From sequence record OQ417968.1: a stretch of DNA of 37,655 nucleotides; one strand, given 5' to 3'. Of this stretch, positions 14,138 through 37,655 are shown in pieces (positions within the stretch are counted from its first letter, which is position 1; the number at the start of each line of letters is the position of its first letter). The translations under genes and the position numbers were made by a program. The DNA is from Mycobacterium phage prophiT36-2b. The notes under the pieces were generated by a model that made no database searches, was not told where the DNA came from, and worked only from the letters and a program-made list of their open reading frames with translations.

Positions 14138-14139
14138 CC

Positions 14140-14804: not shown

Positions 14805-14828
14805 CGCACATCAGCGGCAGGCGCAGCC

Positions 14829-15787: not shown

Positions 15788-15814
15788 CCACTGCAACGCA
15801 ATTCACAAAGAGCT

Positions 15815-15845: not shown

Positions 15846-15886
15846 GGCCCGCAAGGGCTGTTAGCCCTTGAAGGAGGGAAAATCAC

Positions 15887-16699: not shown

Positions 16700-16710
16700 T
16701 CGAACCACCC

Positions 16711-16748
16711 GCACCGGGCCGGGACATCCGACTCCCCCGGCCCGGTGC
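16711..16748 (+). terminator. 13-bp-stem GC-rich hairpin (GCACCGGGCCGGG / CCCGGCCCGGTGC), no T-tract (mycobacterial I-shaped terminator type)
   Basis: Read from sequence after the major tail gene. Confidence 0.55.
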
Positions 16749-16808
16749 GGGGCTCCACATCAGCGAGTCGGCCCCCCAACCCATTCACACAAGGAGTCGA
16801 AGACAATC

Positions 16809-23095: not shown

Positions 23096-24846
23096 GCATT
23101 GCGGCCTTCGCCGAACCGTTCACCGGTACCGATCACGACGACTTCGCCCAGTGGGCACGGGAGATCCGCGACTACCGCATCGAACGGGCCTATGACCGTC
23201 CCGGCGTGCAGCTCTATGACGGCGACTGGGTGTATCGCGGCACCGTCTACGGCGAGAACGGCGGCAACATCCACCCGGTCGTCAATGAGACCGGCACGAT
23301 CCAACTGAGGCTCCCGATCGATCTGGAGGATCGGCGCGGCACCTGGGCGGCGTTCTGGGCGCTAGACGAAGACGCGCGTGGCACCAGCAACATTCACATT
23401 CGCGTCGAGACGATGGGCGCGCGGATCTGCGGGCGCATGAAGTCCAAAAACGGCGTGACCATCGTGCGCGGCGACAAGGGCGATGAGGTCGTCATCGACT
23501 TCCTGGACGACATCGAAGAGATGAAATTCGTTCACACAGCGGGTAATCCGTTCCTGCCGTTGTCACTGATCCAGCAGCCCAAGGCGTGGATGCTGCTCGC
23601 GCAAGCCGATCACGGGATCTTGCTGACGCTGGCCGCGAACTTACTTCGGTTGCAGCTCACCAACATCAACCTCTCGTTTTTCGAGGACCTACTGGACCCG
23701 GACAATTGGCCGGTCAACCCGCTAGATCTATGGCAGCAGTCTCAGATCATCGTCAAGCCGCGCAAGATCGGCGATTCCGTAGCGCCGCTGGCCCTGGTGG
23801 TCGGCAGCATCCGAACCAGCATTTTCGATGTCGCGGCACCGATCCTGGAAGACGCTGAGTTGCAATGGGATCTGCGCCGCTGGTTTACCGGCGACCCCGA
23901 GCCGTGGCCGGGGGCGGGCACCGATTGGATACGCAACGGAACACTGTTCGTGGACATCGTGAACAAGTCCGGATTCCGCGAGGGCACCTCCCTGGGCGGC
24001 AACCTGTTCACCGGCCTGACGCGCACGATCGCGGGCGTCACGTCCAACCACGTCGAGGACAGCTACGACCTGTTTACCGGCGACACGATCGATGAGACCG
24101 GCTACCGGCTACCCGGCGTGCTCGGCACCCTGCCGTCACACCCGTACGTGGTGTACTGCGACGGCGACATCACTGGCATTCAGACCTCCGCGTTTTCGCG
24201 CTCGCCAGGCGGCGCGGGCCGGATCACGGTCGGTGGCCAGTCGATGCCAGGCGTCAACGAATTAATCAGTGCTGCAATACAATACGGCGGCGATGTTCTC
24301 GGAGACAACATCTCAGCGGCGATCAGCGCCGGTATCGGCAAAGACGTGACAGTCGGATCACTGGGCGGTGCGCTCGATAGCTTCCTGAACCCGATCTACA
24401 AGGACTCCATCCTGGCCAACATGTCCGTACCGCTGCTGCTACGCGTCTCTAAGCAGGGCTGGGGCCACTACCTGGAAACCACGTCAACCAACGTCACACA
24501 GGCATTCACCGCAGCATCCGTGATGGACCTGCGCCGCCGCCGTCGCGAGACTGACCCTGACATGTCATTTACGCTGACCGTCGCCAACGCCTCACCGTGG
24601 CTCATCGGAGACAACGGGTTTGGTCATTGGTGGCTCGGAGACCGCGTGGGCGGCACTGAGAAGTATTTGATGCCAAGGGTGTTCGTGCGCCGATGCCGCG
24701 AACTAGACATCTCCTGGGACGGACCCCAGGGATTGGGCATCGACGCCGTGTTCGGCGATACCCGCGCCGAAATGGACGCCATTGAGCGCATGGCTGAGCT
24801 GCTATCCAAGACGTTCAGCGGACTACAACAGATAGGACTCTGGTGA
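23092..24846 (+). CDS. Minor tail protein (Tal/baseplate hub-like), ~584 aa
   Basis: ATGA-coupled in-frame start inside track ORF 23017..24846. Confidence 0.65.
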   Translation: MSIAAFAEPFTGTDHDDFAQWAREIRDYRIERAYDRPGVQLYDGDWVYRGTVYGENGGNIHPVVNETGTIQLRLPIDLEDRRGTWAAFWALDEDARGTSNIHIRVETMGARICGRMKSKNGVTIVRGDKGDEVVIDFLDDIEEMKFVHTAGNPFLPLSLIQQPKAWMLLAQADHGILLTLAANLLRLQLTNINLSFFEDLLDPDNWPVNPLDLWQQSQIIVKPRKIGDSVAPLALVVGSIRTSIFDVAAPILEDAELQWDLRRWFTGDPEPWPGAGTDWIRNGTLFVDIVNKSGFREGTSLGGNLFTGLTRTIAGVTSNHVEDSYDLFTGDTIDETGYRLPGVLGTLPSHPYVVYCDGDITGIQTSAFSRSPGGAGRITVGGQSMPGVNELISAAIQYGGDVLGDNISAAISAGIGKDVTVGSLGGALDSFLNPIYKDSILANMSVPLLLRVSKQGWGHYLETTSTNVTQAFTAASVMDLRRRRRETDPDMSFTLTVANASPWLIGDNGFGHWWLGDRVGGTEKYLMPRVFVRRCRELDISWDGPQGLGIDAVFGDTRAEMDAIERMAELLSKTFSGLQQIGLW

Positions 24847-25268
24847 GTAAAGCATCTGAACCGTTGTCGGCCGAGGACGTTAAGGCACTGGCCGACAAGG
24901 TAATTGATGAGACGGTGATCCCCAAGAAGGTCCCTGCGGTCGATGACATCGACGGGCAGACCAAAGCGGTCGGCGGTGCGCTGGCCTCGGCACTGCTGAC
25001 CGCGACAGAGATGCCGCTACACACCCTACAGCCGTGGGTAGGCGAACTAGCCGATCAGATGGTCGCCCTCGGCATCCGGCAGACCGCACACGTGGACCCG
25101 GCAGCTGTGCATGCCCCGGCCTGGATCACCGATGGTGTTCGGCAGCAGTCCGTCAAGCTCCCCGAGCCGCCCCAGCACACCGAGGCCGCACCGGTCGTGG
25201 AGATGATCGCCACGGCCCCCAAGTGCCCCAAGCGCATCGCGAAGTCAGCTAGGGCGGTTCGCCGGTGA
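24843..25268 (+). CDS. Minor tail / hypothetical protein, 141 aa
   Basis: ORF track. GTGA overlap. Confidence 0.45.
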   Translation: MSKASEPLSAEDVKALADKVIDETVIPKKVPAVDDIDGQTKAVGGALASALLTATEMPLHTLQPWVGELADQMVALGIRQTAHVDPAAVHAPAWITDGVRQQSVKLPEPPQHTEAAPVVEMIATAPKCPKRIAKSARAVRR

Positions 25269-28030
25269 CCACACCCGGTGGCGTGCCCAACCTTCCGGTC
25301 GGCGCATTGACGGTCGGCACCCTTGCCGACAGGCTGCAAAACGTCACACAGGGCGCGATGCGCGCCCGCGCAGGCGAGCGCATGCCGTCGATCTTCCACT
25401 CATCGACCGGCGGCAACATCATGAACGACCTATCGCCGTTCGGGATCATCGCCGCTATCTGGGCCGGATTCAATTCCCATGTCGCCCAGGCCGACCCGAA
25501 CGACATAGACGGCCCCGACGACCTTCCCGGTCTGCTGATGGACTTCATCGAAGGCTTGCCGGTCATCGGCCAGTTCGTCACGCTACTGGAGGCGATCGCC
25601 GGGACCTACGACGGCACCGATGAAACCCTGCTGGCCATCCAGCAGATATTCATGCCGATACGCAAACTCCTGCAACTGGTTTCCGGCCAAAACGTCGGCC
25701 TGCCCACCGTGGAGGACATCGTGTCGGGCTGGGAACAACTCGGCGACGCGATCGGCAATGCAGTCAGCAAGCTGCCGGGTGTGTTGTCCATCTCGCGGAT
25801 CGCCGATGTGATCCAAGACCTGATTGACGGTGCGGGCGAATTCCTCAACGCGAGCAGTGTTGACGATAACCCGTTCTTCGACTGGGATTCGGTTGTCCCT
25901 GGGTGGCTTTCGGGCGGCTCGGTCCGGGCGAGCGGTAACGGCACCCAACAGGTGTTGCGTTCAGAACCGTTCGACGTGGCCGAGGGGCAAACACTGAACC
26001 TGCGGGTCGGGTCCATGTGGACCGGCCTGACGGCAATCGCAGGGTCGGACCCGATCAAGGTCGGGTGGACCCCGTTTGACGCGTCGGGCAACCCGCTGGC
26101 CGACGTGATCAAGGGTGTACTGCAACCGGCGAGCGCCGATGGGGGTTGGCAATGGATTCCCACCGACACATGGGATGTGCCCAGCGGAGTTGCGAAAGCC
26201 TCAATGCTGCTGATCCTGGACTCCGGTGCAACCGGTGGAGTGGTGCGCTTCTCCAACGCCAGGCCGTGGGCGTCGAACCTTTTGCCCACGAACCTCGTTA
26301 ACGGACTAGAAGCGGCGCTCACCGAATTCACTACCCGTATCAAGAGTCTGTTTGACACCATCGGCGGCGCGGTCGGGGCGACCGTCGAGGACATCGAAGC
26401 GCGCCTGGCGGCAATCGGCGCTGACGGCAAGATCGACGCCGCCGAACTGTGGAACATCGCCAACATTCCCGCCATCGCGGTCAGCAAGGTCAGCGGCCTC
26501 GTTGAGCAGCTGGCCGCCTACGCGCTCAAGAGCGCCGTGCAGACCTTCATGGACACCGTAGGCGGCACAGTCGGCGCATCCATGACCGACGTGTTTAACC
26601 GGCTCTCCAAGCTATCGTCCACCGGCCAGATCAACGGCGCCACAGGCATCTCCGGTGCGATCTCCGAGGCGCAGACCGGCGTCACAGCGGTACGCGATGC
26701 GTTCGTCAACGGGATGATCGGCCTACTGGGGACGGGCGGCTCCGGGTTCAGCAACACCGACGCCCAAAACCAGGCCACTCAGCTCGCGGTGCTCGCGCAG
26801 CAAGCGGCGGCAGCAGCGGCAGCCATTCAGGCCCAATACCTACGCAACCAGGTGACGGTGCCCTCCGGTCTAACGAGCTATATCACGACATTTGGCGGGT
26901 CCGATGGGTCAGCGTTACCCGCCGAGTTCACCGGCTCGGATCTGAAAATCCGTACCGCCAACGGCTATTGCGGTATCGACGCGTCAAAGCCTGACGGCAC
27001 CTATTTCGTCACCTGCAACAGGGCGACCACCACCGACGAGGTGCAGACCACGATTGTCATTGGTGATGCCGGTGGACTCAATTCGATTGCCACCTATACC
27101 CTTTTCAGTTCCGACAGCGCGGGCACGACCGGTGCATACTTGGGAGTCAACGGCAACTCAGTACAGGTCGGCAAGTACACCCGTTCGGGTTCGGCGTTCA
27201 CGTTCACGACGCCGTTCATGTCCTGGTCGGGGCCACTGGGGCAAGGCATTGCGGTAACGGCCTACCGCAAGTCGAACAACTGGGTGCTGGACGTGGGCGG
27301 CGATGTCAAGGCCACCGCAACTGATTCCAGCGTGACCACCGGGCCGTCAAACCGCTACGGCGCAGGCATTGTCATGATGCGCAAAACCTCAAGCGGAGGA
27401 TGGTTTTCGGGCAGCTACCAGTACGACTCGCTGCGGCTGGCGTCGGTGTTCCTGGGCGACTTCTACGCCAAGGCCACCAACTATACGGGCGCTCGGCTAC
27501 AGCGCGCGGTCGGCGCGGCCAACACCGCAGGCCCTACACATCCGTACTCGTTGGGGGGCAACGCATCTGTCACCGTGACCGGCGCATGGGGTGGCGGTGC
27601 CTTCGGCATCATCGGGTTCAGTTCCGATGACGTAACCCCCAATACCGCCAACGGCACCATCGTCGTGAATACCTCCGGGCTCTACTACGTCGAACACCGT
27701 GACCCCGCCTGGACATGGACAGCCGGAACAGCGATCGAACCGTCCGCATCAGCGCTCGACGTCGTGATCAACACCGTCAACCACATCACGCTCGAAGGCG
27801 ACTACAAGCTGCTCGACGGCACAGCCAACACCGACACCGGCAGCTGGGGCGTAACCGGCCACACCGCCGTCCCGATACCGGCGTTCGTGCGCCTCAACGC
27901 CGGGGACGTGGTGCAGCTGGGGTACACCGTCACGCTGAGAAACACGGGCGGCTCCTCACGCTCAGGCAATGCCGTCTTCACATTGACCGGGACCGCGCCG
28001 GGCTTGCTCGGCATCTACAAGATGGGTTAG
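25265..28030 (+). CDS. Large minor tail protein (putative receptor-binding/fibre), 921 aa
   Basis: ORF track. Central coiled coil (QAAAAAAAIQAQYLRNQ). Beta-rich C-terminus. Confidence 0.7.
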   Translation: MTTPGGVPNLPVGALTVGTLADRLQNVTQGAMRARAGERMPSIFHSSTGGNIMNDLSPFGIIAAIWAGFNSHVAQADPNDIDGPDDLPGLLMDFIEGLPVIGQFVTLLEAIAGTYDGTDETLLAIQQIFMPIRKLLQLVSGQNVGLPTVEDIVSGWEQLGDAIGNAVSKLPGVLSISRIADVIQDLIDGAGEFLNASSVDDNPFFDWDSVVPGWLSGGSVRASGNGTQQVLRSEPFDVAEGQTLNLRVGSMWTGLTAIAGSDPIKVGWTPFDASGNPLADVIKGVLQPASADGGWQWIPTDTWDVPSGVAKASMLLILDSGATGGVVRFSNARPWASNLLPTNLVNGLEAALTEFTTRIKSLFDTIGGAVGATVEDIEARLAAIGADGKIDAAELWNIANIPAIAVSKVSGLVEQLAAYALKSAVQTFMDTVGGTVGASMTDVFNRLSKLSSTGQINGATGISGAISEAQTGVTAVRDAFVNGMIGLLGTGGSGFSNTDAQNQATQLAVLAQQAAAAAAAIQAQYLRNQVTVPSGLTSYITTFGGSDGSALPAEFTGSDLKIRTANGYCGIDASKPDGTYFVTCNRATTTDEVQTTIVIGDAGGLNSIATYTLFSSDSAGTTGAYLGVNGNSVQVGKYTRSGSAFTFTTPFMSWSGPLGQGIAVTAYRKSNNWVLDVGGDVKATATDSSVTTGPSNRYGAGIVMMRKTSSGGWFSGSYQYDSLRLASVFLGDFYAKATNYTGARLQRAVGAANTAGPTHPYSLGGNASVTVTGAWGGGAFGIIGFSSDDVTPNTANGTIVVNTSGLYYVEHRDPAWTWTAGTAIEPSASALDVVINTVNHITLEGDYKLLDGTANTDTGSWGVTGHTAVPIPAFVRLNAGDVVQLGYTVTLRNTGGSSRSGNAVFTLTGTAPGLLGIYKMG

Positions 28031-28033
28031 TCG

Positions 28034-29086
28034 ATGCCCTGGTCTCCGAACCCGGCTGCGTCGCCTCGACGATCGGGCGGTAAGTGGTCTGCGCACCCGG
28101 TTGTGCCGTTGCGTAGATCTACCGGAAAGTGGATCTGGGTACCGCGCCTGGGTGCTGCCGATACCGGCGTTGGTGAGGACTCGGCAAGCCTGCTGGCCCG
28201 CTTGACGGCCACCGACAACGGCCTCGGTCAAGATCGCGGCGCACTGCTCGCGCACCTGTCCGGCCTAGACGACGGTCTGGGCTCTGACCGGGCCGCGCTA
28301 CTGGCCCACCTCACCGGAACCGACACCGCTATCGGCGAGGGCTCGGGCACGGTGTTCCTGAAGTACTTCCTGTCGGGAACTGACGACGCCATCGGCTACG
28401 ACACCGCCGCACTGCTCGCTCACCTCACAGGGAGCGAGGACAGCATCGGGTCCGATCTAGCCGCGCTACTGGTGCACCTGACGGGCCGTGACGACGGACT
28501 GGGCTACGACAGCGCCACCGTGGCCCGCTCGCCGACTGCGCCCCTGCGCACCGACTTCACCGCGACCGGCGCCTACAACTATGCGATTCCCGAGTGGTCC
28601 CTGATCATCGACTACGCGCTGTGGGCCGGTGCCGCATCAGGGCAGACCGGCAACGGCGCCGTCAATACGGCGGGCAAGGGCGGCAAGGCCGGTCAACTGA
28701 TCACCGGCACCCTGATACGTGGCGTTGACATTCCCTGGAGCCTGGCCGCCATCACCGGCACCGTAGGCGCAGGTGGTGCGCAACCCGCCAACAGCGACGG
28801 CGCGGGTCCGACCGCAGGCGCCAACACAACCGCCGTGATAAACGGCGCCACCCAGACCGCGATCGGCGGCAGTGGGCAGGCATCAAGTCAGAACGGCGAA
28901 ACCGCCGCCAGCGCCACCATCGCCGGAACCAACTACACGGGCGGTCCGGGCGGCACCGGGAACGGCAGCGCAGGAACCGCACCGGGCGGCGCTGGCGCGG
29001 GCGGAAACGGCGGCATCTTCGGCTCCCGCACACGCGGTGGGCCGGGCGGCAACGGACAAGCGTCATTCAGGGCACGTCAAACCTAA
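28034..29086 (+). CDS. Glycine-rich minor tail protein with 5-6 tandem 18-aa (54-bp) repeats (ALLAHLTGxDDxxGxDxA), 350 aa
   Basis: ORF track. DNA repeats at ~28187-28510. Gly-rich GGxGGxG C-terminus. Confidence 0.65.
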   Translation: MPWSPNPAASPRRSGGKWSAHPVVPLRRSTGKWIWVPRLGAADTGVGEDSASLLARLTATDNGLGQDRGALLAHLSGLDDGLGSDRAALLAHLTGTDTAIGEGSGTVFLKYFLSGTDDAIGYDTAALLAHLTGSEDSIGSDLAALLVHLTGRDDGLGYDSATVARSPTAPLRTDFTATGAYNYAIPEWSLIIDYALWAGAASGQTGNGAVNTAGKGGKAGQLITGTLIRGVDIPWSLAAITGTVGAGGAQPANSDGAGPTAGANTTAVINGATQTAIGGSGQASSQNGETAASATIAGTNYTGGPGGTGNGSAGTAPGGAGAGGNGGIFGSRTRGGPGGNGQASFRARQT

Positions 29087-29101
29087 AGAAAGGCAACAAC
29101 T

Positions 29102-29467
29102 ATGACAGCGGCAGCAGCACACCAGCGGACAATCTGCGACGCCATCACGGCGGCGGGCGTCAAGATCACCGCACACGAGTCCGACCCCGGCACCAACGGC
29201 GCGGGCTTGATCGCCACCACCCCGGCATCGTTCAACACCGTGTGGCCAGCGGCCACGGATGGCACGGGCGCAGACGCCGGATACGCCGTCTCGCAAGGCA
29301 GTACAGGGACATTGCAAGGCCCTGCCGGGAAAGTCGTTGGATGGTACGGCGTGTGGAACGGCTCGACGTTCCTGCGCGGTCATGCCCTAGACCAAAGCAT
29401 CACCATCGGTTCCAACCCGGTGAACTTCGACATCACCCCCAAGGCCCGATACAAGGGCGGTCAGTGA
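29102..29467 (+). CDS. Minor tail protein, 121 aa
   Basis: ORF track. RBS aaagaaagg. Confidence 0.5.
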   Translation: MTAAAAHQRTICDAITAAGVKITAHESDPGTNGAGLIATTPASFNTVWPAATDGTGADAGYAVSQGSTGTLQGPAGKVVGWYGVWNGSTFLRGHALDQSITIGSNPVNFDITPKARYKGGQ

Positions 29468-29607
29468 TGCGCCAGCTGCTCGCGGTATTCGCCCTCTGTC
29501 TGGCCATCGGCGCCGCTGCATTTCGGCTCGGCTGGTGGGCATCCGACCAACTTTCGTCCTACGCCCAAGAAATCAACCCACGTATTGAAAGGCAGTACAC
29601 CCGATGA
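29467..29607 (+). CDS. Small membrane protein (1 TM, 46 aa)
   Basis: Manual: MRQLLAVFALCLAIGAAAFRLGWWASDQLSSYAQEINPRIERQYTR. C-terminal in-frame part of track ORF 29242..29607. TGATG coupling. Confidence 0.4.
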   Translation: MRQLLAVFALCLAIGAAAFRLGWWASDQLSSYAQEINPRIERQYTR

Positions 29608-29768
29608 AATGGCTACGGCACCCGGTTGATTCGCTCATCGACTACGCCGCCGACCGGTTCTATGACCGGCTGCGCGATCGCGTACTGGCCGACCTGGCTC
29701 CTTTTGCCGGCAAAGAGCTAGACGCGGCGCGAGCCAAGCTGTCCGATCTGTTCGGGTGGCTGCCGTGA
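29604..29768 (+). CDS. Small hypothetical protein (54 aa)
   Basis: Manual: MKWLRHPVDSLIDYAADRFYDRLRDRVLADLAPFAGKELDAARAKLSDLFGWLP. ATGA coupling. Overlaps the lysA start by 13 nt. Confidence 0.4.
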   Translation: MKWLRHPVDSLIDYAADRFYDRLRDRVLADLAPFAGKELDAARAKLSDLFGWLP

Positions 29769-31033
29769 GGTACTGGCCCCTGGACGCTGGCCGCGTCATC
29801 ACCTCACCGTTCGGCACCCGCGACGGCGGCATGCACACAGGAACCGACTTCGGCTTCCCTGGCGGCTCCGGTGGCCGACCGGTCTATGCCGTGCAAGCGG
29901 GCACCGTCATTTATGCCGGTGCCGCCTCCGGATACGGCGGTCCTGATCCTGCGGGCTGGCTCGTCATCGACAGCACCGACGACCAGGGCGGCGGGGTATT
30001 CGAGTACGGACACATCGTGCGCGAGGTCGGCACCGGCGCGAAAGTTGTGGCCGGACAGCGCATAGGGCGTATCAACCCCGATTCGGCCACCAATGGCGGT
30101 GTCGCCCCACACCTGCACCTTTCCTGGATGCCGCGCGAATACAACCCCGCCCGCAAGCAAGACCCGCTGCCCGTACTGAACGGTGCCGCCGAACCCACCC
30201 CGACGACCCAACCGCCAGGAGGTAACTCAGTGACCATCTTCGGGATCGACATCAGTAACAACAACGGCACGGTCGATATAGACCGCGTGAAAGCCGAGGG
30301 TTTCCAGTTCGTGTGGGCCAAGGTGTCCGAGGGCGCCACCTTCCGTGACACGTTCTGGCCCCGCACCCGCGACTGGTGCCGCAAGGCAGGTCTACTGCTG
30401 GCCGGATATCACTACGTGCGCGAAGGCAACGCCGACGCCCAAGCCGACACGTTCGTCGCGCAGCTGGGGGACAAGACGATTCCGGCCATGCTCGATTTCG
30501 AGGACGGCTCGGGCGGCATCGAAAACTATTGGGATGTCAAGGAAGCCATCGAAGCTCGCGGCGTGCATGTGGCCCTGTCCTACATTCCGCGGTGGTACTG
30601 GCAGCGCGTCGGCTCACCGGATCTGTCCGGGGTTCCCGGCCTGATCCAGTCCAGCTACGTCACCGGCACCGGATACGCCTCGGCGCTCTACCCCGGCGAC
30701 AACTCGTCATTCTGGAACGCGTTCGGCGGCAAGGCTCCCGATATTCTGCAATTCACCAGCCAAGCTCAAGTGGCGGGCAAGATCATGGACGCCAACGCAT
30801 TCCGGGGCAGCATCGAACAGCTGCGCGCGCTGCTCAATCCCAACGAGCCCTCCCCGCAACCCGAACCGGTACCCGGCGACGTGATGTCCTACTTACGGGA
30901 CATCAAGGCGCAGCTGACCGGATCGCCCGAACTGGGCGAGTACCCCGGCTACCGGCAGCTGGACAACATGACGGTCACAGATTTCCTGGCCTCGCTGGGT
31001 AAGCGGCTCGCGGCGCTGGAGAACCGGTCATGA
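29756..31033 (+). CDS. lysA: Endolysin LysA: N-terminal M23 peptidase plus central GH25 muramidase plus C-terminal cell-wall-binding region, 425 aa
   Basis: M23 motifs (HTGTDF, HLHLS). GH25 signature IFGIDISNNNG...GYHY. Confidence 0.85.
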   Translation: MAAVRYWPLDAGRVITSPFGTRDGGMHTGTDFGFPGGSGGRPVYAVQAGTVIYAGAASGYGGPDPAGWLVIDSTDDQGGGVFEYGHIVREVGTGAKVVAGQRIGRINPDSATNGGVAPHLHLSWMPREYNPARKQDPLPVLNGAAEPTPTTQPPGGNSVTIFGIDISNNNGTVDIDRVKAEGFQFVWAKVSEGATFRDTFWPRTRDWCRKAGLLLAGYHYVREGNADAQADTFVAQLGDKTIPAMLDFEDGSGGIENYWDVKEAIEARGVHVALSYIPRWYWQRVGSPDLSGVPGLIQSSYVTGTGYASALYPGDNSSFWNAFGGKAPDILQFTSQAQVAGKIMDANAFRGSIEQLRALLNPNEPSPQPEPVPGDVMSYLRDIKAQLTGSPELGEYPGYRQLDNMTVTDFLASLGKRLAALENRS

Positions 31034-31938
31034 CGGCCCGACACGCCCTGCTGTGTTTCCGGGGCACGGGCGGTGAATGGGGCCTGGACTACACCTCCCG
31101 AGTAGCGCAAGCATGCTCGGCGCTGGTCGAAGAGGTCGATGTCGATGCCCCCGCGACCATGGGTGCCGCGCCGGTCGGTGCAGCCACAGACCCGCTGGCG
31201 CCCAGCGGTTTCGAGTGCGTACACGCCATGGTCGAATGGGCCGTCACATGGGTGCGTAACAACCCCACCCGCACATTCGGCGTCGCGGCGTACAGCCTCG
31301 GCGCGATCGGCGCAGTCTTGTTCGCGCGCGAATTCATGCCAGGCGGGCGGCTGGAAAAGTACCGGGATAACTTCCTGTTCGGCGTCACGTTCGGCAACCC
31401 CGCCCACGCACGCGGCCACACCTTCTATCTCGGCGAAGACCCTGGCGGCGAGGGCATCTCGGATATCCGGCTCCCCGAAGGCATGTTCGGCTGGGAATGG
31501 GCCGACCTCGTGCAAACCGGCGACCTCTACGCCAACGTCCTCGGAAACCCGCTGGTGGTCAAGGTATGCCGCGACGCCTACGCGATCGTGATGACCCAAC
31601 AGTTGCACAACCCGCTGCGCCTGATATTCGACATGCTGCCGCTGCTCTTGCAGATCGTCGCCGATTCGGTCAACTGGCCACTGTCGATACCGCGCACCAT
31701 CACCTCGGCGTTCCTGGGCCTGTTCGCCTCCCTGCTGCCGATGCTGCCCGTGAGCAACGACAAGACCGCAGCAGCTGTCGCAGCGGCAAGTCAAGGCATC
31801 GGATTCGCGCTCGCCCAGCCTCCAACCGGGCCGCACATCACCTACGAGTTCGCCGAGGTCTGGCCCGGAATGACGTACTTCGACCTGGCCGTACAGCACG
31901 TAAACGACTGGGCATCAAGAACACCCGCCCGCGCATGA
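31030..31938 (+). CDS. lysB: Lysin B (mycolylarabinogalactan esterase, alpha/beta hydrolase), 302 aa
   Basis: GxSxG (AYSLGA). Position after lysA. ATGA overlap. Confidence 0.8.
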   Translation: MTARHALLCFRGTGGEWGLDYTSRVAQACSALVEEVDVDAPATMGAAPVGAATDPLAPSGFECVHAMVEWAVTWVRNNPTRTFGVAAYSLGAIGAVLFAREFMPGGRLEKYRDNFLFGVTFGNPAHARGHTFYLGEDPGGEGISDIRLPEGMFGWEWADLVQTGDLYANVLGNPLVVKVCRDAYAIVMTQQLHNPLRLIFDMLPLLLQIVADSVNWPLSIPRTITSAFLGLFASLLPMLPVSNDKTAAAVAAASQGIGFALAQPPTGPHITYEFAEVWPGMTYFDLAVQHVNDWASRTPARA

Positions 31939-31967
31939 CCCACCCACAACCCGAAAGGAAAAACGCT

Positions 31968-32213
31968 ATGCCCAATCCCGTACCCCAGAACGACACCACA
32001 CGCCTGATCGTCTATGCGGTCACGTTCCTATCCGTGCTCGGCGGCACAGTCACCCTGATCGCTCTGGGCAAGATGGACGCCGCCAGCGGCCTACAGTGGA
32101 TCATCTCCGGGGCCGGTCTCATCGGAAGCGGCATGCCTGGCCTCAAGCTCGCCCAAGATATGCGCGCCAGCGGCACAGGAAGCTCTGACGATTCGGATGT
32201 GGCTGCCCAGTGA
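31968..32213 (+). CDS. Holin (2 TM, ~81 aa)
   Basis: RBS gaaaggaaaaacgct. In-frame ATG in the real C-terminal part of track ORF 31497..32213. Hydrophobic helices. Follows lysB. Confidence 0.65.
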   Translation: MPNPVPQNDTTRLIVYAVTFLSVLGGTVTLIALGKMDAASGLQWIISGAGLIGSGMPGLKLAQDMRASGTGSSDDSDVAAQ

Positions 32214-32461
32214 CACCGGAGATCATCCAAGCCGTTGGTGTCGCTATCGCCGCGATCCTGACCGCATGGCAGGCATTCACATCGCGTAAGGTCCGCGAAC
32301 TCGAAACCCGGCTACGCGCCGTCGAATTGGAGCGAGACACGTTCCGCACGAAATTACGGGCCGCTGTCCGGCACATCCGCGAATGGATGGCCTGGGCGAT
32401 ACACCACGCGCCAGGGCAAGCACCACCCGCCTTACCCCTAGAACTACGCGACGAGGTGTAA
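32210..32461 (+). CDS. Membrane protein (N-terminal TM plus coiled coil), possible second holin/lysis accessory, 83 aa
   Basis: ORF track. GTGA overlap. Confidence 0.5.
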   Translation: MTPEIIQAVGVAIAAILTAWQAFTSRKVRELETRLRAVELERDTFRTKLRAAVRHIREWMAWAIHHAPGQAPPALPLELRDEV

Positions 32462-32475
32462 CCGAGGCTAGATAC

Positions 32476-32514
32476 CAGAACCGCCCCACCGTGTCACTTG
32501 GTGGGGCGGTTCTG
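32476..32514. terminator. Bidirectional terminator: 14-15-bp perfect inverted repeat CAGAACCGCCCCACC / GGTGGGGCGGTTCTG with 9-nt loop, between the lysis cassette (+) and the minus-strand cargo cassette
   Basis: Read from sequence. Confidence 0.75.
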
Positions 32515-32529
32515 GTCGTTGCTGGCCTT

Positions 32530-32859
32530 TTACGCGGGCTTGTCGATCGGTTCGGCCTTGTACTTGAATTTGATGTCATCGCCGTTCACTGATGTTGTCG
32601 TGACCACGACGGAGTACTTAGTCCCCTCGTCGTCCACAACAGTGCACTTTTGTGTCGCATCGACCTTGCCGTCTAGCGGGCCGTCACACTCGGCGCCGCG
32701 AAGGTCGAAATGTTGCCTCTCTTTGACCGCGTCCTTTAGCCCCTGCTCAAGGTTGTCCTTAGAGATGCGCTTGAAATTGCCGACATCGACAGAGGCGTGG
32801 CAACCCGAGAGAGCGGCCATGAACAGCAGGGCCGAAGCAATCATCAAGTTAGCCTTCAT
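32530..32859 (-). CDS. Lipoprotein (signal peptide plus lipobox LSGC), 109 aa. Noticeably AT-richer codon usage than the phage backbone
   Basis: ORF track. MKANLMIASALLFMAALSGC. Confidence 0.6.
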   Translation of the reverse strand: MKANLMIASALLFMAALSGCHASVDVGNFKRISKDNLEQGLKDAVKERQHFDLRGAECDGPLDGKVDATQKCTVVDDEGTKYSVVVTTTSVNGDDIKFKYKAEPIDKPA

Positions 32860-33304
32860 CTTCCACCACTTTCAGGTTTTGCAGGAACGAAACAAACTCG
32901 GGCTTGACAAGATCATACTGGTCACGTGGCGAGCTGAATATCAGCTCCAGCAGATACGACCGGCCATCTGCAGTGCCAGTGGTCGAATACAGGCGATCGC
33001 CCCTCACCGGCACACCGGCTTCTATAAACTCCAATTCCTGGCCGTATTGCGATATGGGCTTGTACGAGATGTAGCCGCTGCGGGCGACGGTGGCATTCAA
33101 CCGGTCAGCGTCGGCCCGCGCATGCTTCTGGACATCGATTGTTGGCCAGTTGATGAAGCACTCGCGCACGACGATGCGTGCCGATGGCACGATAGGCTCT
33201 CTGACGTACACCACCACCGCGTACGGGTCGCTCTCGTGGTCTGGGGGGATGGTGGCCCATCCGGCAGGGCCGTCACCGCCAACGTTGACCTTGTACTTGG
33301 GCAC
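32849..33304 (-). CDS. Putative immunity protein of the toxin cassette, 151 aa
   Basis: Immediately downstream of the toxin gene (1-nt gap) and co-oriented. No recognisable motif. Confidence 0.4.
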   Translation of the reverse strand: MPKYKVNVGGDGPAGWATIPPDHESDPYAVVVYVREPIVPSARIVVRECFINWPTIDVQKHARADADRLNATVARSGYISYKPISQYGQELEFIEAGVPVRGDRLYSTTGTADGRSYLLELIFSSPRDQYDLVKPEFVSFLQNLKVVEDEG

Positions 33305-33305
33305 G

Positions 33306-34799
33306 TTAGTTATTGACCCACTGCCACAGTTTGCCTAGCTCGCCGCCGAATTCCTTTGGATCAACTGTAATTTCAAATCCCGGTTTGGCGCCTATGCCGA
33401 ATGCTAGGCCCCAGCTGCCGCCGATCTTCCATTTGTGGTCCGGGGTCTCGGCAAAGGTGAGATGTGCTCCGGCGCCCGCGCCAGCCCACTCCTGTACTTC
33501 ACCCTTCACTTGGAGACCGTGGCCCTCGTAGTCGAGATGCTGACCGCCACCGATGCCACCGAAGGCGCCACCGCCGATCTGAATTCCGTTCTCTGCTACT
33601 GCTTTACCGTTGGTGTATTCCTCGACACCTAGGCGACCGGCGGTGCCTGCCTCTATCTTGCTGCCGTCCCCCAGGTCCCAATGGATATTGCCCTTGTTGT
33701 CTATCAGGTATGCGCCCGCGTGTTGCTTGCCCGAAACGGCGTCTTTCTTGACTTCGCCCTCGGCGCCGAATTTTGCTTCCAGCTGTTTGGAATTGAGTTC
33801 CCAGTCCCCGCCGAATGCGTGCCCCTTGCGGCCCCACTCGTTGACCTCGCCGCCGAGCTCTCCGGTCTCGCCTTTCGCGATCGTGGGGCCTGAGCCGTCG
33901 CCGATCTTGGTCGGATCGCCGAACTTGCCTCCGATAGTTGTGCCGGTGGGCGTGGTGTTCTTGCCCTCCGGGGACTTGTCTACGCCCTTACCGGCCTGGG
34001 TGCCAAAGTCCTTGTCCTTCTTGAGCAATTCCTGTTCAGGGATCGGAATCTCCGGCTTGCCTAACTTGTCCTTGAGTGGGACTCCGGGCTGATCCTGCGT
34101 CTGCGGCAACCGACCAAGGGTGTCGGTCATGCTACCGACGCCAGCCGGTGTGGTCGCTGCCGGTTCCCCGGATAGCAGTTTCTGGACTTCCGTTGGTGCG
34201 AAGGCTTGTGGGTTCGTCTCGGCTACGGCGGCGCGTACGGCTGTGCGCCCGTTGGCGCCGACCGCGCTCAGGTTGATCGCGCCCGCGATTTGCGACTCGG
34301 CGCTATGGATTTTGTCCGCAACGCCCTGCGATGCCGAAAACCATTTGCCCGCGCTGTCTTTAAGTTCGTCAGCCGCAGCGGCCACAGTCTGTTTGTTCTT
34401 CGCTGCTTGCTCATCGCTCATCCCATCCGGGGCGGTGTAGGTCATCGTGTAATCCTGATTGACCGTTACGCCCTGGATCTGGCGAGCGTTGTCAACGATG
34501 TTGTGCCCATTGTTCAGAGCTGGCACCACTTCGTAGGTGACAGCGGCAGTCACCTCGGTCACCAGGCCCTCCACCGTGTCGTGGATGGAGGTGATCGCGT
34601 TTGTGTCCTGGCCAGCTTTGTCCTGCGCGGCGGTGGCCGTCTTGCCCCACCAATCCGTCCCACCTGGCGCGTACACGCCCGATTTGTACTCCGCGTAGTC
34701 GGACACCAGCGCCCGCATTTCAGCGGCCCAGCCGGGGACGTGCTCTAAATATGAGTTGGGGTTGATTGCCATGAATTCATCCAGCGGCGGAAGGGACAT
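33306..34799 (-). CDS. Polymorphic-toxin-like protein: N-terminal WXG (DWWGK) helical domain, Pro/Lys/Gly-rich linker, Gly-rich C-terminal domain, 497 aa
   Basis: ORF track. WxG motif ~residue 50. Low-complexity linker. C-terminal repeats GxWxL.../AKFGAEGEV/KGEVQEW/GIGAKPGFE. Confidence 0.55.
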   Translation of the reverse strand: MSLPPLDEFMAINPNSYLEHVPGWAAEMRALVSDYAEYKSGVYAPGGTDWWGKTATAAQDKAGQDTNAITSIHDTVEGLVTEVTAAVTYEVVPALNNGHNIVDNARQIQGVTVNQDYTMTYTAPDGMSDEQAAKNKQTVAAAADELKDSAGKWFSASQGVADKIHSAESQIAGAINLSAVGANGRTAVRAAVAETNPQAFAPTEVQKLLSGEPAATTPAGVGSMTDTLGRLPQTQDQPGVPLKDKLGKPEIPIPEQELLKKDKDFGTQAGKGVDKSPEGKNTTPTGTTIGGKFGDPTKIGDGSGPTIAKGETGELGGEVNEWGRKGHAFGGDWELNSKQLEAKFGAEGEVKKDAVSGKQHAGAYLIDNKGNIHWDLGDGSKIEAGTAGRLGVEEYTNGKAVAENGIQIGGGAFGGIGGGQHLDYEGHGLQVKGEVQEWAGAGAGAHLTFAETPDHKWKIGGSWGLAFGIGAKPGFEITVDPKEFGGELGKLWQWVNN

Positions 34800-34805
34800 C
34801 GTTGC

Positions 34806-35111
34806 TCACCTTTGCCGATAGATGCTGGGCGTGTTCTTGAAAGCCGTCTCCAGCTCGCTTGACTGCTGAACGAAAGCCTGATGCGCCTCGCTGATCAGCT
34901 CCCCGATAACCCGTAACCGTCGAGAGGCAACCCGCTGCACATTCGGGATCGTCTTGGTGGTCATTGACTGGATCGCCGCGAGGGCCGGATCGGCACCCTT
35001 GGTGACGTTTTCGCCGGCCGAAATCCGACCATCAATACGGTCAGCTATCGCGCTGAGCTGCGGATTCAGCTTGCCCAATGCCTCAAGGTCGGCCTTCAGA
35101 ATCTCATCCAC
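34806..35111 (-). CDS. Small helical protein, possible Esx/WXG100-family secretion partner (no WxG motif seen), 101 aa
   Basis: ORF track. GTG start with GGGGAGG RBS. ~100 aa all-helical. Directly upstream of the toxin gene. Confidence 0.4.
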   Translation of the reverse strand: MDEILKADLEALGKLNPQLSAIADRIDGRISAGENVTKGADPALAAIQSMTTKTIPNVQRVASRRLRVIGELISEAHQAFVQQSSELETAFKNTPSIYRQR

Positions 35112-35224
35112 GAACCGTTTGCCTCCCCGTCCATAGCTAAGCCGCTGGAGACAAAGCTACAACGCGCGTAGTGGTGCGCGCATGCCAATCGTGACGAGAC
35201 GGTCACCTCTGTTGGCCTGGTCCC

Positions 35225-35599
35225 TTAATCCAGATGTCCTGGTTCGCCAGGCGGAATGGTTTCAGGCGTGACGATGTACCGCTCGATGTCGCCCTCCGAT
35301 GCCGGGGTGACATCGCGCTCGTCCTGCCAGTTTCGCGAGCAACCGCCCTGGTAGTAGGTACCGCCGCAACTGCTGCGCCGGTACTGCGGACTCCAGAATT
35401 GGCGCGATCGTGACCACCATGGCCCGTTGGGTCCTTGCTGGATAGGTCCATCGCATATCTTGCGCACCTGCGGATTGAGCCCAAAGACAGGGACCTGTTC
35501 GCAGCCGGACGGTAGTGGGTCGGCCTGGGCGGGTGCGGTGCCGAAAATCGTCGCCGCGATCGCGGCGGTGGCTGCGGCAAGCGCCGCGATCTTCCCCAT
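35225..35599 (-). CDS. Secreted small Cys-containing protein (Sec signal peptide ...APAQA|DP), ~124 aa
   Basis: Internal Met of track ORF 35225..35728. The longer N-terminal extension would start at 35728, two nt from the tRNA gene. Confidence 0.5.
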   Translation of the reverse strand: MGKIAALAAATAAIAATIFGTAPAQADPLPSGCEQVPVFGLNPQVRKICDGPIQQGPNGPWWSRSRQFWSPQYRRSSCGGTYYQGGCSRNWQDERDVTPASEGDIERYIVTPETIPPGEPGHLD

Positions 35600-35647
35600 A
35601 GTTCGGGATGATAATGCCTGCTGGTCGCGGCTACTGCCTAACGGGAT

Positions 35648-35693
35648 GAGGCCACGCTGGCCCGGTGAAGCAAGCACCGGACCGCGTGGCCTC
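35648..35693. other. Nested inverted repeat: GAGGCCACGC...GCGTGGCCTC (10-bp arms) enclosing CCGGTG...CACCGG
   Basis: Read from sequence between the secreted-protein gene and tRNA-Thr. Confidence 0.4.
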
Positions 35694-35729
35694 TCTGACG
35701 GTGGTTTACGATTACGGGGCCTTTTCAAG

Positions 35730-35802
35730 GCCGCCTTAGCTCAGTCGGTAGAGCAGCTCACTCGTAATGAGCAGGTCAGCGGTTCGATTCCGCTAGGCGG
35801 CT
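35730..35802 (+). tRNA. tRNA-Thr (anticodon CGU), 73 nt, no encoded CCA
   Basis: Manual fold: acceptor GCCGCCT/AGGCGGC, D-arm GCTC AGTCGGTAG AGCA, anticodon stem GCTCA/TGAGC with loop CTCGTAA, T-arm AGCGG TTCGATT CCGCT. Confidence 0.85.
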
Positions 35803-35807
35803 CTCCT

Positions 35808-36700
35808 TTATGCCGCGTCGCCGTCCGTCAATATGAGGGACGGTATCGGCGCCCCTCCGATGGGTAGCTGTAGCCGCTCGATGCCTTCTGCTCGGCGTTC
35901 GTTCTTCACCTGGGTGTAGATCTGGGTTGACTGGATGCTCGCGTGGCGGGCGAGTTCCTGGGTGGTTCGCAGGTCTACGCCAGCCTCCAGTAGCGCGGTG
36001 CAATACCAATGACGCAACCGGTGACCGGCGCCCTGTACGCCTGCACGGGTGAATACCTGTCCAAGCGTGTGGCTGACCGACTCGCGGCGAACATGCCCGC
36101 CACTCTTGCTTGGAAACCAGTGCCCCTTGCGAGGCATTTGGTACGCGATTTCGACAACCAGCGGGTGAAGGGGAAGCACCTTCGTGACGTTGCCCTTGCC
36201 GTGCACGATCATCGTGCGGGCGATCAGGTCGAAGTGCTCGCCCTTGACCTTGGCGATTTCGTGCACTCGGAGTCCTTGCAGTGTGGCTAGCAGCGCCATA
36301 GCGCGTGTTCGTTTCCACATCCGAACGCGCAGGATGCGTCCCAGCTCCTCATCGGTCACTGGTCGCGGCTCGCTCTTGGGACGCCGGGGCGATGGAATGT
36401 GGAGCATCGGATTGTCTATGCGATGCCCCTGCGTTTGCAGCCACGAGAACCACGCACGCAATGTGCTGTGATACGTCCAGCGGGTTCGCGCTGACCAGCC
36501 TTCGTCACTGTCGGCCCCTTCGGCGAGCCACCGAACGATGTGTTCCAGTGTTGCGAGTTCCGGAGCCACGCCGCACCACTCGGCCATCCGCCTCACGGTC
36601 CACGCGCGCTCGGTGACTGTGCGAACAGACAGCGATTGCGCGTATTGCCATGTTGCCCAAAGGTGCAAGAGTGATGTGTGGTGTGAGTGAAGGTTCAGCA
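35808..36700 (-). CDS. int: Tyrosine integrase (site-specific recombinase), ~297 aa from Met at 36700 (alternative upstream start at 36821). C-terminus ...LTDGDAA
   Basis: Catalytic motifs HRLRHWY and IYTQV (Tyr). N-terminal core-binding/SAM-like domain. Abuts the tRNA 3' end. Confidence 0.85.
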
Positions 36701-36951
36701 TTCCGCCCCCTGATGATGAGTTGATGGTTTTCGGCTCCCTGGATTCCCCCCGGTCTCCATGCCGCTCGGCAGAGCACGAAACTATGGCGAGATGGGCTCG
36801 GCCACAAGCCTTTTCGGTCACTGTTTGAGCACCTTCCTGTAACTATTGGCACGGGCGTCCCATCGTGGCTTTGGCTCGGCTACCAGCAGATTTGGGTTTG
36901 GCATGCAGAAATGTTCCACGTGGCAATAACGTGATTTGACTGTTGCGAAAT

Positions 36952-37206
36952 TCAACGGTCCGCGAGGAATAGGGCAAATCGGTCGGTTTTGCCAATTCCG
37001 TAGAATCGCCGTCGCTCGCGTGAGCGGGATTGACCTTCGCCCCACAGCATTACGCCGTTCAACGCGTAGACGACACTCGCGTAGGCCGGTGTGCCGGGCA
37101 ATCGGAATACACACTCATGCACCGGGCCTAACACATCCGAGGTGCCACCGTTGGATATCCAGCCGTGCACGAGGGCCGTGCGGGCGTGGTGCTGCGCGTC
37201 GGTCAT
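36952..37206 (-). CDS. Hypothetical protein, 84 aa
   Basis: ORF track. ATGA-coupled to the upstream minus-strand ORF. Confidence 0.45.
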   Translation of the reverse strand: MTDAQHHARTALVHGWISNGGTSDVLGPVHECVFRLPGTPAYASVVYALNGVMLWGEGQSRSRERRRFYGIGKTDRFALFLADR

Positions 37207-37538
37207 CGACTCGCACCCTTGTCATAGGCAGCGACGACGAGCTTCAACACCGCTTCGGCTTGGGCGCGGTCGGCGACTTTGGCGGATAGTAGCTCTCCGG
37301 CCCGATCGCCCATGTAGACGGCCCACCCCGTAACCCAGTCCTTGGCCCACGCCACTGTGCGCAGGGCTCGCATCGCCGCCAGGCAGTCCCCGTCGTCCAC
37401 GATCGCGGTCGCTTCGCAGTCGTAGTGGGCGCGACTGAACGGGCGCTCAGCCTCGTCACCGCTGCGCCGGTATTCGACGTGAGCGCCGCACGCACAGCGT
37501 CGAACCCGAATGGTGGCGCCCTCGGTCGCCCTGCTCAC
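37203..37538 (-). CDS. Hypothetical protein, 111 aa (GTG start)
   Basis: ORF track. Its GTG start overlaps the stop of the repressor C-terminal reading frame (GTGA). Confidence 0.45.
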   Translation of the reverse strand: MSRATEGATIRVRRCACGAHVEYRRSGDEAERPFSRAHYDCEATAIVDDGDCLAAMRALRTVAWAKDWVTGWAVYMGDRAGELLSAKVADRAQAEAVLKLVVAAYDKGASR

Positions 37539-37615
37539 GCCGCGATCCGATCAGGCGTGACGGTCGGCACAGTGCTCATGAATAGGGGGACGATTTGGGC
37601 GTCTTTGTCAGACTT
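37535..37615 (-). other. Orphaned 3' end of the virion-form repressor gene: 26 sense codons (KSDKDAQIVPLFMSTVPTVTPDRIAA) plus stop. In-frame with the attL-side repressor ORF if core 37616-37648 is replaced by core 1-33
   Basis: Manual translation of the minus strand from 37615 in the frame that continues codon 3-1 of the left arm. Confidence 0.55.
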
Positions 37616-37648
37616 GTAATGAATAGGTCAGGGGTTCGATTCCCCTGG
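37616..37648. repeat. attR: attR core. With flanks 37613-37655 it is the 3' half of a tRNA-Thr(UGU)-like gene (anticodon loop CTTGTAA, T-arm AGGGG TTCGATT CCCCT, acceptor GGGTGGC). No tRNA 5' half upstream
   Basis: Direct repeat of 1-33. Manual tRNA alignment against tRNA-Thr(CGT) at 35730. Confidence 0.75.
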
Positions 37649-37655
37649 GTGGCTC

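Follow-up and report, generated by a model that had tools for sequence, protein, structure and literature searches.

A prophage-borne cassette for a putative type VII toxin with a predicted glycine-zipper beta domain and two conserved partner genes

Prophages of Mycobacterium abscessus carry cassettes that encode a polymorphic toxin together with an immunity protein. These polymorphic toxin-immunity (PT-Imm) cassettes were first described by Dedrick et al. in 2021 (PMC8092301), and Abad et al. renamed them in 2023 as PEST, for phage-encoded ESX-secreted toxin (PMC10654092). Hundreds of PEST cassettes are present in M. abscessus prophages, where they are expressed by lysogens and suspected to act in strain competition and virulence, and no activity has been assigned to many of the toxin ends. 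Toxicity and immunity have been published for other PEST types, and for prophiGD43A-6 the toxin N-terminus and the small effector have been modelled as a PE/PPE-like heterodimer (PMC10654092). The toxin of another prophage, prophiGD54-2, is described as AvrE-like on the basis of distant HHpred similarity, and its Imm protein as an LpqN-like lipoprotein (PMC8092301). The subject of this work is a cassette of this kind in Mycobacterium phage prophiT36-2b (OQ417968.1), whose 37,655 nucleotides, called the window below, were analysed as a whole. The cassette encodes a 497-residue toxin, a small helical protein of 101 residues, a leaderless protein of 151 residues and a DUF4333 lipoprotein of 109 residues.

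This kind of cassette is already published; what is new is a hypothesis for the C-terminal domain of the toxin, a unit of four genes that includes the DUF4333 gene, and a chromosomal distribution that spans the Actinobacteria. Taken as a whole, the locus is explained, with a little better than even confidence, as a PEST1-type operon of four genes, the toxin of which would be exported by an ESX system, permeabilise membranes through a beta-structured domain and be countered by protection in two compartments. The published description of PEST differs in that it counts three genes, leaves the DUF4333 gene uncounted and calls the leaderless 151-residue protein a lipoprotein.

The cassette and its prophage relatives

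The window is collinear from end to end with cluster MabB prophages of M. abscessus; its positions 43..37655 align with positions 72..end of prophiGD08-2 and with other records, which makes it a nearly exact whole prophage. It belongs to the MabB type and to the M. abscessus/chelonae group. The cluster assignment of MabB prophages and their site, attB-2, have been reported (PMC8092301), and MabB relatives encode a tyrosine integrase and carry attP inside the repressor gene at the right end, the arrangement of integration-dependent immunity. In megablast comparisons, only about 25-28% of the left 25 kb of the window can be aligned; a large part of the backbone has thus diverged from the deposited MabB genomes.

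The DNA at positions 32530-35111 is 80.9% identical to genes 53-56 of prophiGD16-1 (MW584149), whose products, gp53-56, are labelled hypothetical, lipoprotein, polymorphic toxin protein with WXG motif, and WXG motif protein. The four genes stand in identical order in both prophages, and the encoded proteins are 87% (toxin), 89% (small partner), 74% (151-residue protein) and 88% (DUF4333 protein) identical; prophiGD16-1 differs in having two DUF4333 genes, where there is one here. The toxin is likewise 87% identical to that of prophiT49-2 (OQ417962, gp4-7); for prophiGD54-2, prophiGD43A-2 and prophiGD89-1 the figure is 77-82%, and every one of these proteins carries the annotation of a polymorphic toxin with a WXG motif. 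The cassette of prophiGD43A-2, with a toxin 77% identical to the present one, is expressed in the lysogen (PMC8092301, Fig. 4B). An identical 497-residue protein is found on 13 public contigs, so the sequence itself is not new.

Located between the lysis genes and the tyrosine integrase, the cassette lies in a prophage near the integration module, which is the location used to recognise PEST cassettes, and it occupies the slot beside the integrase in which the PT-Imm cassettes of MabB prophages are found. It is a further copy of the published PT-Imm/PEST1 kind, of MabB type. The original prediction, made from the letters and open reading frames of the DNA, had placed the region among the ESX/WXG100 toxin-immunity cassettes of M. 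abscessus prophages, and the identities to annotated polymorphic toxin cassettes (81% for the DNA, 87% for the toxin) agree with it. The same four genes are also present at the left end of unrelated 80-kb prophages of cluster MabI, and the MabB slot of prophiGD21-1 is taken by another toxin cassette; the module thus moves as a unit.

The packing of the genes is close. The gene of the 101-residue protein lies 6 nt before the toxin ATG, the toxin stop codon lies 1 nt before the gene of the 151-residue protein, and the latter overlaps the DUF4333 lipoprotein gene by 11 nt. Such spacing points to translational coupling and to single-operon packing, and positions 32530-35111 are a tightly coupled operon of four genes.

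The toxin and its C-terminal domain

The toxin is composed of a helical domain for secretion or targeting, a linker and a C-terminal domain, named TOX (Table 1). In the full-length AlphaFold2 (AF2) model, the N-terminal helices span residues 24-42, 53-106 and 129-174, and the motif W50-W51-G52 (nt 34644-34652) is placed in a loop between two long helices; this run, made with 30 close homologues, was poor, with a predicted local distance difference test (pLDDT) of 50. Among 30 homologues, W50 and G52 are invariant, in keeping with the WxG helical N-terminus that had been predicted. The Pfam models WXG100 and T7SS_signal do not recognise the toxin N-terminus, and the full 497-residue protein has no match in Pfam, NCBIfam, PHROG, PADLOC or the sequences of the PDB. 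The predicted Pro/Lys/Gly linker is likewise present: it is rich in Pro, Lys, Gly and Thr, has a pLDDT below 50 in both AF2 models and is predicted to be disordered. Its second half, from about I253-P-x-P-E-Q, is conserved together with the C-terminal domain, and this conservation runs from Q256 across four N-terminal types.

Both ends of the toxin occur in other combinations. The first 228 residues have relatives of 35-40% identity in 25 other prophage toxins, which differ in their C-termini and include that of prophiGD43A-6, the PEST1 reference, and the same N-terminus is found on a chromosomal protein that ends in a PF13930 nuclease. The C-terminal segment, from about residue 253 to the end, is attached to four unrelated N-terminal domains in Mycobacteroides and Mycobacterium. 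These comparisons verify a polymorphic architecture, in which the TOX domain recombines independently of the N-terminus.

The C-terminal domain gave no match to the models of Pfam, NCBIfam, PHROG and PADLOC or to the sequences of the PDB. As had been noted from the letters, it is rich in glycine (23% over residues 306-479), and the family as a whole consists of 22% Gly and 17% Ala, with Cys absent. Over 70 family members, invariance is limited to G440, G442 and G470; G377, G405, G415, A443, G464 and G468 are nearly invariant (at least 90% of the members), and D454, K456 and the pair D480-P481 are common (73-84%). Several His, Glu and Asp residues are invariant inside Mycobacteroides, yet they are not kept across the whole family, which argues against an enzyme. 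An enzymatic toxin was rejected, since the C-terminal domain has no conserved catalytic residues. The most conserved motif of the family is a glycine zipper, G460-x3-G464-x3-G468-x-G470, the pattern of which is found in 65 of the 70 members with glycine frequencies of 0.79, 0.96, 0.94 and 1.00 at the four positions.

A usable model of the C-terminal domain was obtained only with the domain alone and 70 diverse sequences. From this alignment, AF2 gave a confident model, with a pLDDT of 85-94 over residues 306-497 and a predicted template modelling score of 0.64. In it, six to seven antiparallel strands, each 21-24 residues long, form a meander, and a terminal amphipathic helix follows. In the last three strands, a hydrophobic face (74% hydrophobic in the final strand) is opposite a face of small and polar residues, and the zipper motif is predicted as beta-strand (pLDDT of about 87-91). 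An internal hairpin repeat with an offset of about 48 residues is also detected (hhalign 94%, E 1e-7). The fold has no significant match to any solved structure, and its best, weak resemblances are all to outer-membrane barrels. The domain is read as a new hairpin-repeat beta domain that, according to the model, would have membrane-barrel character, which is not evidence of homology to porins. It yields a proposal that can be tested, namely permeabilisation through a conserved glycine zipper in an array of beta-hairpins.

Other identities of the domain were also considered. A phage structural protein, which the original prediction had named as the outcome that would speak against a toxin, was rejected: the domain has no match in BFVD, it matches no phage structural protein, and it matches no solved structure significantly. 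An anti-phage defence system was rejected as well, PADLOC being without a match.

The domain is rare. An exhaustive search of 1.84 billion representatives returned just 20 relatives, and a profile search about 70 clusters, all from Actinobacteria: Mycobacteroides, Mycolicibacterium, Gordonia, Actinophytocola, Prauserella, Amycolatopsis, Streptomyces and a metagenome-assembled genome of Aquihabitans. In every family member it is the C-terminal domain, and the N-termini are of the PF21725 T7SS_signal, WXG100, WXG100_2 or PPE-like types. Among these sequences, the domain is confined to Actinobacteria and always carried by putative type VII secretion substrates. In Gordonia (locus L008, 1-3669), the gene abuts eccC, eccD and two WXG100 genes and thus lies inside an ESX locus; this placement beside eccC and eccD connects it directly, at the level of the genome, with type VII secretion. 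The called N-terminus of the Gordonia protein is rich in Pro and Gly and has no recognisable WXG domain, so its start is possibly mis-called.

Partner genes, proposed mechanism and rival readings

The protein encoded before the toxin had been predicted to be Esx-like. It is a small helical protein in the right position; it contains no Trp and hence no WXG motif, and neither WXG100 (PF06013) nor any other Pfam family matches it at E<=1. It is 89% identical to gp56 of prophiGD16-1 ("WXG motif protein") and 85% identical to gp4 of prophiT49-2 ("WXG100 domain protein"), and it belongs to phrog_18870 (E 4e-44), which is labelled as function unknown. Counterparts at the same position in distant loci show sub-threshold matches to WXG100, EspC or PE. 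Five counterparts in other genera carry YxxxD/E, where the 101-residue protein has F-V-Q-Q-S. It is fair to say that the protein holds the place of the PEST "WXG100 effector"; as a small helical partner, and in no other sense, it can be called Esx-like.

The 151-residue protein, whose gene follows that of the toxin, begins with MPKYKVNVGGDGPAGW, which is not hydrophobic, and has neither a signal peptide nor a lipobox. Its open reading frame starts 1 nt past the toxin stop codon, and no upstream extension is possible. The homologues fall into 19 clusters, 16 of which are 147-151 residues long, with two shorter (108 and 120 residues) and one of 164 residues. Its start, its hydrophilic N-terminus and the lengths of its homologues mean that the protein cannot be a lipoprotein. 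In GenBank, relatives of this family (L001 3819-4274; L002 4244-4699) are named "lipoprotein LpqN". This label is a propagated annotation error; the true lipoprotein is the product of the next gene, which is mostly annotated as "hypothetical". The Pfam family Lpp-LpqN (PF10738) scores 11.9 bits against the 151-residue protein, with a cut-off of 22.4 (E 0.16), and in the family it matches 2 of 17 members, all sub-threshold (best E 0.0026); a profile of the family found nothing in the PDB. A distant relationship to the LpqN fold is possible. An LpqN/PsbP-like fold was not established for the family, and an Eag/DcrB-like chaperone is a conjecture and not a result.

At every locus, the gene of the leaderless partner is present as a single copy immediately downstream of the domain gene. 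Its homologues stand there in Mycobacterium sp. CBMA271, M. chelonae, Mycolicibacterium wolinskyi, Gordonia, Actinophytocola, Amycolatopsis and two Streptomyces, with profile E values of 1e-6 to 1e-29, an hhalign figure of 87% and a shared P-x-G-W motif. Between close relatives (L001 and L002), the amino acid identity is 64-74% for the leaderless partner, 90-91% for the toxin domain and 88% for the lipoprotein, and an arms race or a relaxation of constraint may lie behind the quicker divergence of the leaderless partner. The loci of Actinophytocola, Amycolatopsis and Streptomyces share one more conserved gene, which comes after that of the leaderless partner and is read from the other strand (L004 6905-7582(-), L009 5921-6616(-), L010 5776-6504(-)). 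It encodes 225-242 residues with one N-terminal transmembrane helix, with identities of 48% and 32% between loci, and it is found in Actinophytocola although a DUF4333 gene is missing there.

The last gene of the operon encodes the lipoprotein that had been predicted for the cassette: the 109-residue protein has a signal peptide, an L-S-G-C lipobox (in MKANLMIASALLFMAALSGC) and two conserved Cys, and belongs to DUF4333 (PF14230; 40.5 bits, cut-off 27). It also shows a partial and far sub-threshold similarity to NCBIfam NF052486, an "anti-apoptotic protein" of mycobacteria (42.6 bits, cut-off 250).

The three last genes of the operon are distributed together. In tblastn searches, the C-terminal domain, the 151-residue protein and DUF4333 each match the identical 7 of 50,697 phage records, and neither partner occurs in any of the 25 other prophages that share the toxin N-terminus alone. 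Outside phages, a DUF4333 gene lies 1-3 genes from the domain in 9 of 10 distinct other loci, in 1-3 tandem copies, and the trio is found together in Mycobacterium sp. CBMA271, M. chelonae, Mycolicibacterium wolinskyi, Gordonia, Amycolatopsis and two Streptomyces. In mycolate-containing genera, the DUF4333 gene shares the strand and lies downstream; in Amycolatopsis and Streptomyces, it is upstream and divergent. Its copy number is one in the window, two in prophiGD16-1, CBMA271 and M. chelonae, and three in M. chelonae S00154. The tandem copies are only 30-35% identical to each other, and such divergent copies look like immunity arrays. For loci L001-L011, the hidden Markov model scan is circular, its models having been built from these loci; independent support there comes from precomputed Pfam calls of DUF4333 and from profile searches across groups. 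By this distribution, the lipoprotein is linked to the toxin domain as tightly as the 151-residue protein is, and its presence is not incidental.

DUF4333 genes with neither toxin nor partner within 4 kb are found in Mycolicibacterium peregrinum, Mycobacterium sp. DL99 and Nocardia (L014-L018), at 34-42% identity. They could be orphan immunity genes or unrelated paralogues, and, given the breadth of the family and this low identity, these toxin-free copies are uninterpretable.

Together, these elements suggest a mechanism. The 101-residue protein would pair with the WXG N-terminus of the toxin as a PE/PPE-like heterodimer, and the pair would be exported through the ESX (type VII) system of the host bacterium. 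The flexible linker would bear a non-enzymatic, Gly/Ala-rich array of long amphipathic beta-hairpins with the conserved glycine zipper, and this C-terminal domain would enter a membrane and permeabilise or depolarise it. In the cytoplasm of the producer, the leaderless 151-residue protein would bind the C-terminal domain before export, as a neutraliser or a chaperone, and the DUF4333 lipoprotein would stand on the outside of the plasma membrane and shield the lysogen and its kin from incoming toxin, or act as an accessory factor. What the sequences show is the gene anatomy, the homology to published cassettes, the domain shuffling, the motif, the predicted fold and the strict co-distribution of the trio. 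Published work on relatives supplies the expression in lysogens, the toxicity and immunity of other PEST types and the PE/PPE-like model of the N-terminus, and we infer the ESX export of the toxin, its membrane activity and the division of labour between its two partners.

Several points weigh against this explanation. Other C-terminal domains were the subject of the published tests of toxicity and immunity (PMC10654092). The zippers of known glycine-zipper toxins are helical, whereas the model predicts a strand here; in the same model, the first three strands are very polar, and Ala/Gly faces are atypical as lipid-facing surfaces. The 101-residue partner lacks both the WXG motif and the canonical YxxxD/E, an LpqN-like fold of the 151-residue protein is not confirmed by profile or Pfam comparison, and the broad DUF4333 family includes copies that stand apart from any toxin. 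At the Actinophytocola locus, the leaderless partner is present and no DUF4333 gene lies within 5 kb.

The last point also speaks for the best of the alternatives, a standard three-gene PEST in which the 151-residue protein is the sole immunity protein, the target is intracellular and possibly enzymatic, and DUF4333 is a passenger; this is considered rather unlikely. The 151-residue gene is the one coupled closest to the toxin (1 nt) and the sole neighbour kept in Actinophytocola. The published annotation treats the directly downstream gene as Imm and DUF4333 as hypothetical (PMC8092301; PMC10654092), and in other PEST types the loss of a single downstream gene suffices to unmask toxicity (PMC10654092). 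Against it, DUF4333 tracks the domain as strictly as the 151-residue protein does (7 of 7 records, and 0 of 25 with the N-terminus only), the linkage holds over large evolutionary distances and in both gene orders, the DUF4333 gene overlaps the partner gene by 11 nt, and the domain is without conserved polar catalytic residues.

An improbable alternative is that the protein is not a toxin and instead forms a channel or surface structure, exported by the type VII system into the envelope of the producer, such as a mycomembrane pore, with the 151-residue protein as export chaperone and the DUF4333 protein as periplasmic assembly factor. Such a role would suit the best fold matches, all of them outer-membrane barrels, the strands of 21-24 residues, which exceed what a plasma membrane needs, and the many family members encoded at single-copy loci of the chromosome, among them one within an ESX locus. 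However, Streptomyces, Amycolatopsis, Prauserella and Actinophytocola lack a mycolate outer membrane, and the family is equally present there. The tandem divergent DUF4333 copies, with their resemblance to immunity arrays, also disfavour it, as do the exchange of the domain in Mycobacteroides prophages for nuclease, TNT and peptidase toxins on the same carrier and in the same slot (PMC8092301) and the glycine zipper, a hallmark of membrane toxins (PMC12744356).

The remaining alternative, held to be very improbable, is a host-directed effector whose beta-domain permeabilises macrophage or phagosomal membranes as an AvrE-like channel and aids intracellular survival, with partners that only prevent self-damage. 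Nomura et al. (Nature, 2023) are reported to have found that AvrE-family proteins form beta-barrel channels in host membranes, and ESX-4 of M. abscessus is reportedly needed for phagosomal damage (Laencina et al., PNAS 2018). The 82%-identical toxin of prophiGD54-2 is the one reported as distantly AvrE-like by HHpred, and Dedrick et al. argue that the PT cassettes aid growth in host cells (PMC8092301), but neither the toxin nor the 21 C-terminal domains of family members compared have any Pfam match at E<=1, to AvrE or to another family, most members come from soil saprophytes (Streptomyces, Amycolatopsis, Gordonia), and an extracytoplasmic protection factor of variable copy number better suits bacterial targets. 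A host-directed role is compatible with a membrane mechanism.

If the preferred explanation, a membrane-permeabilising toxin with protection in two compartments, is true, the principle of two immunity proteins for two compartments would extend from the T7SSb of Firmicutes to the T7SSa of Actinobacteria. A wider claim is tentative and falls short of probable: the C-terminal domain would represent an undescribed, Actinobacteria-wide family of ESX-exported, non-enzymatic toxins, pore formers with beta-hairpin repeats and a glycine zipper, accompanied by double, compartment-specific protection and captured by prophages from chromosomal ESX loci. Under this wider claim, a beta-type pore former would for the first time be known as cargo of a type VII system, and DUF4333 would gain its first function. 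For the annotation of these cassettes, the analysis redefines the functional unit as four genes instead of three, suggests a candidate role for the widespread DUF4333 lipoproteins and corrects the propagated name "lipoprotein LpqN". The module is not phage-specific and appears as an old companion of type VII secretion across Actinobacteria, Streptomyces included.

Surroundings of the cassette and comparison with known toxins

All five co-oriented, leftward open reading frames of the original prediction are found, and so is their position between a probable terminator beside the lysis genes and the tRNA and integrase genes (Table 1). The left flank consists of convergent lysis genes, namely lysin A, lysin B and holin-like open reading frames. 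Between them and the cassette stands a GC-rich hairpin with the arms CCGCCCCACC N9 GGTGGGGCGG, which is probably a bidirectional terminator and the 3' limit of the operon. A consensus scan for promoters and terminators reported no promoter in the region and missed this hairpin; having overlooked so obvious a structure, it is uninformative for mycobacteria. The five-gene region has a GC content of 60.2%, compared with 63.7% for the remainder of the 37.6-kb window, and in a scan of the entire sequence it coincides with the 3-kb windows of lowest GC, about 2.5 standard deviations under the mean. The predicted drop in GC is real yet modest.

Table 1. Features of the cassette and its surroundings, with positions in the window
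Feature	Position	Strand	Basis
Secreted CDGP-domain protein, 124 aa	35225-35599	-	ORF (open reading frame); start taken at MGKIAAL
Small helical secretion partner, 101 aa	34806-35111	-	ORF
Polymorphic toxin (PEST1 type), 497 aa	33306-34799	-	ORF
Toxin residues 1-210, helical secretion/targeting domain	34170..34799	-	AF2 model, homology
Toxin residues 211-305, Pro/Lys/Gly/Thr-rich linker	33885..34169	-	Composition, predicted disorder
Toxin residues 306-497, C-terminal TOX domain	33309..33884	-	AF2 model
Glycine zipper G460-G-S-W-G464-L-A-F-G468-I-G470	33390..33422	-	Translation checked
Leaderless partner, immunity candidate, 151 aa	32849-33304	-	ORF
DUF4333 lipoprotein, 109 aa	32530-32859	-	ORF
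GC-rich hairpin, perfect 10-bp stem, 9-nt loop	32482-32510	no strand	Read directly from sequence
tRNA-Thr (CGT)	35730-35803	+	ARAGORN
Tyrosine integrase ORF	35808-36821	-	ORF list

The fifth gene, which encodes a CDGP-domain protein, is separated from the other four by a gap of 113 nt. Its product has a Sec-type signal peptide, so the predicted secretion holds, and belongs to CDGP (PF24238; 36.3 bits, cut-off 24.3) and phrog_549. The open reading frame could extend to a TTG at 35728, and the public annotation of an identical locus also gives 124 residues. The gene is absent from prophiGD16-1, prophiGD89-1 and prophiGD43A-2, in which int follows directly after the small partner gene. Homologues with about 43% amino acid identity are found in 160 mycobacteriophage records, all as "hypothetical". 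The tRNA-Thr is 93.5% identical to that of the M. smegmatis phage DuncansLeg and is unaligned in the closest relatives. The CDGP gene and the tRNA-Thr form a separate insertion of about 600 bp (35225-35803) in the same variable slot, between cassette and int, relative to the closest MabB relatives. The CDGP gene, which had been counted as a cassette member, is missing in the closest relatives and is thus a neighbouring insertion outside the cassette. The tRNA-Thr was rejected as an attachment site, as it is internal to the prophage and, in the relatives, attP is part of the repressor gene at the extreme right.

Among known systems, the closest functional parallel is EsxX of S. aureus, a glycine-zipper toxin of T7SSb that depolarises membranes, is toxic from both membrane sides and is countered by a soluble cytoplasmic pair, ExiAB, and a membrane pair, ExiCD (PMC12744356). 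The present locus would share with EsxX, TelE-TipE of S. gallolyticus and TspA-TsaI of S. aureus a type VII toxin with a helical N-terminal targeting domain and small helical partners. The likeness would include a C-terminal, non-enzymatic glycine-zipper domain and protection genes for two compartments, soluble and leaderless on the one hand and membrane-associated on the other. The pattern (G/A/S)xxxGxxxG near the C-terminus, by which glycine-zipper toxins are recognised, is present as G460-x3-G464-x3-G468 in 65 of the 70 family members. The zipper is predicted by AF2 as a beta-strand and not as part of a transmembrane helix, and this makes the relation to TelE, EsxX and TspA a functional analogy and not membership. 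There is no sequence similarity, and the systems differ further: T7SSb and LXG there, T7SSa and a WXG/PPE-like carrier here; a helical zipper there, a zipper predicted inside long beta-hairpins here; ExiAB of the DUF5085 family and polytopic ExiCD there, a perhaps LpqN-like protein and a DUF4333 lipoprotein here.

In M. tuberculosis, CpnT with EsxE-EsxF and the pair PE25-PPE41 resemble the cassette in the helical WXG-type N-terminal carrier, in the small helical partner or partners encoded upstream and in ESX export, which is proposed for the present toxin, and CpnT also in a C-terminal toxin with a downstream antitoxin. The toxin domain of CpnT, TNT, is a NAD+ glycohydrolase with a soluble antitoxin, IFT, whereas the domain described here has no catalytic residues and a second, lipoprotein partner. 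With beta-barrels and beta-pore toxins such as OmpU, NalP, FhaC and parasporin-2, the predicted domain shares a long antiparallel meander, hairpin repeats and, in the C-terminal strands, the alternation of hydrophobic with small or polar residues.

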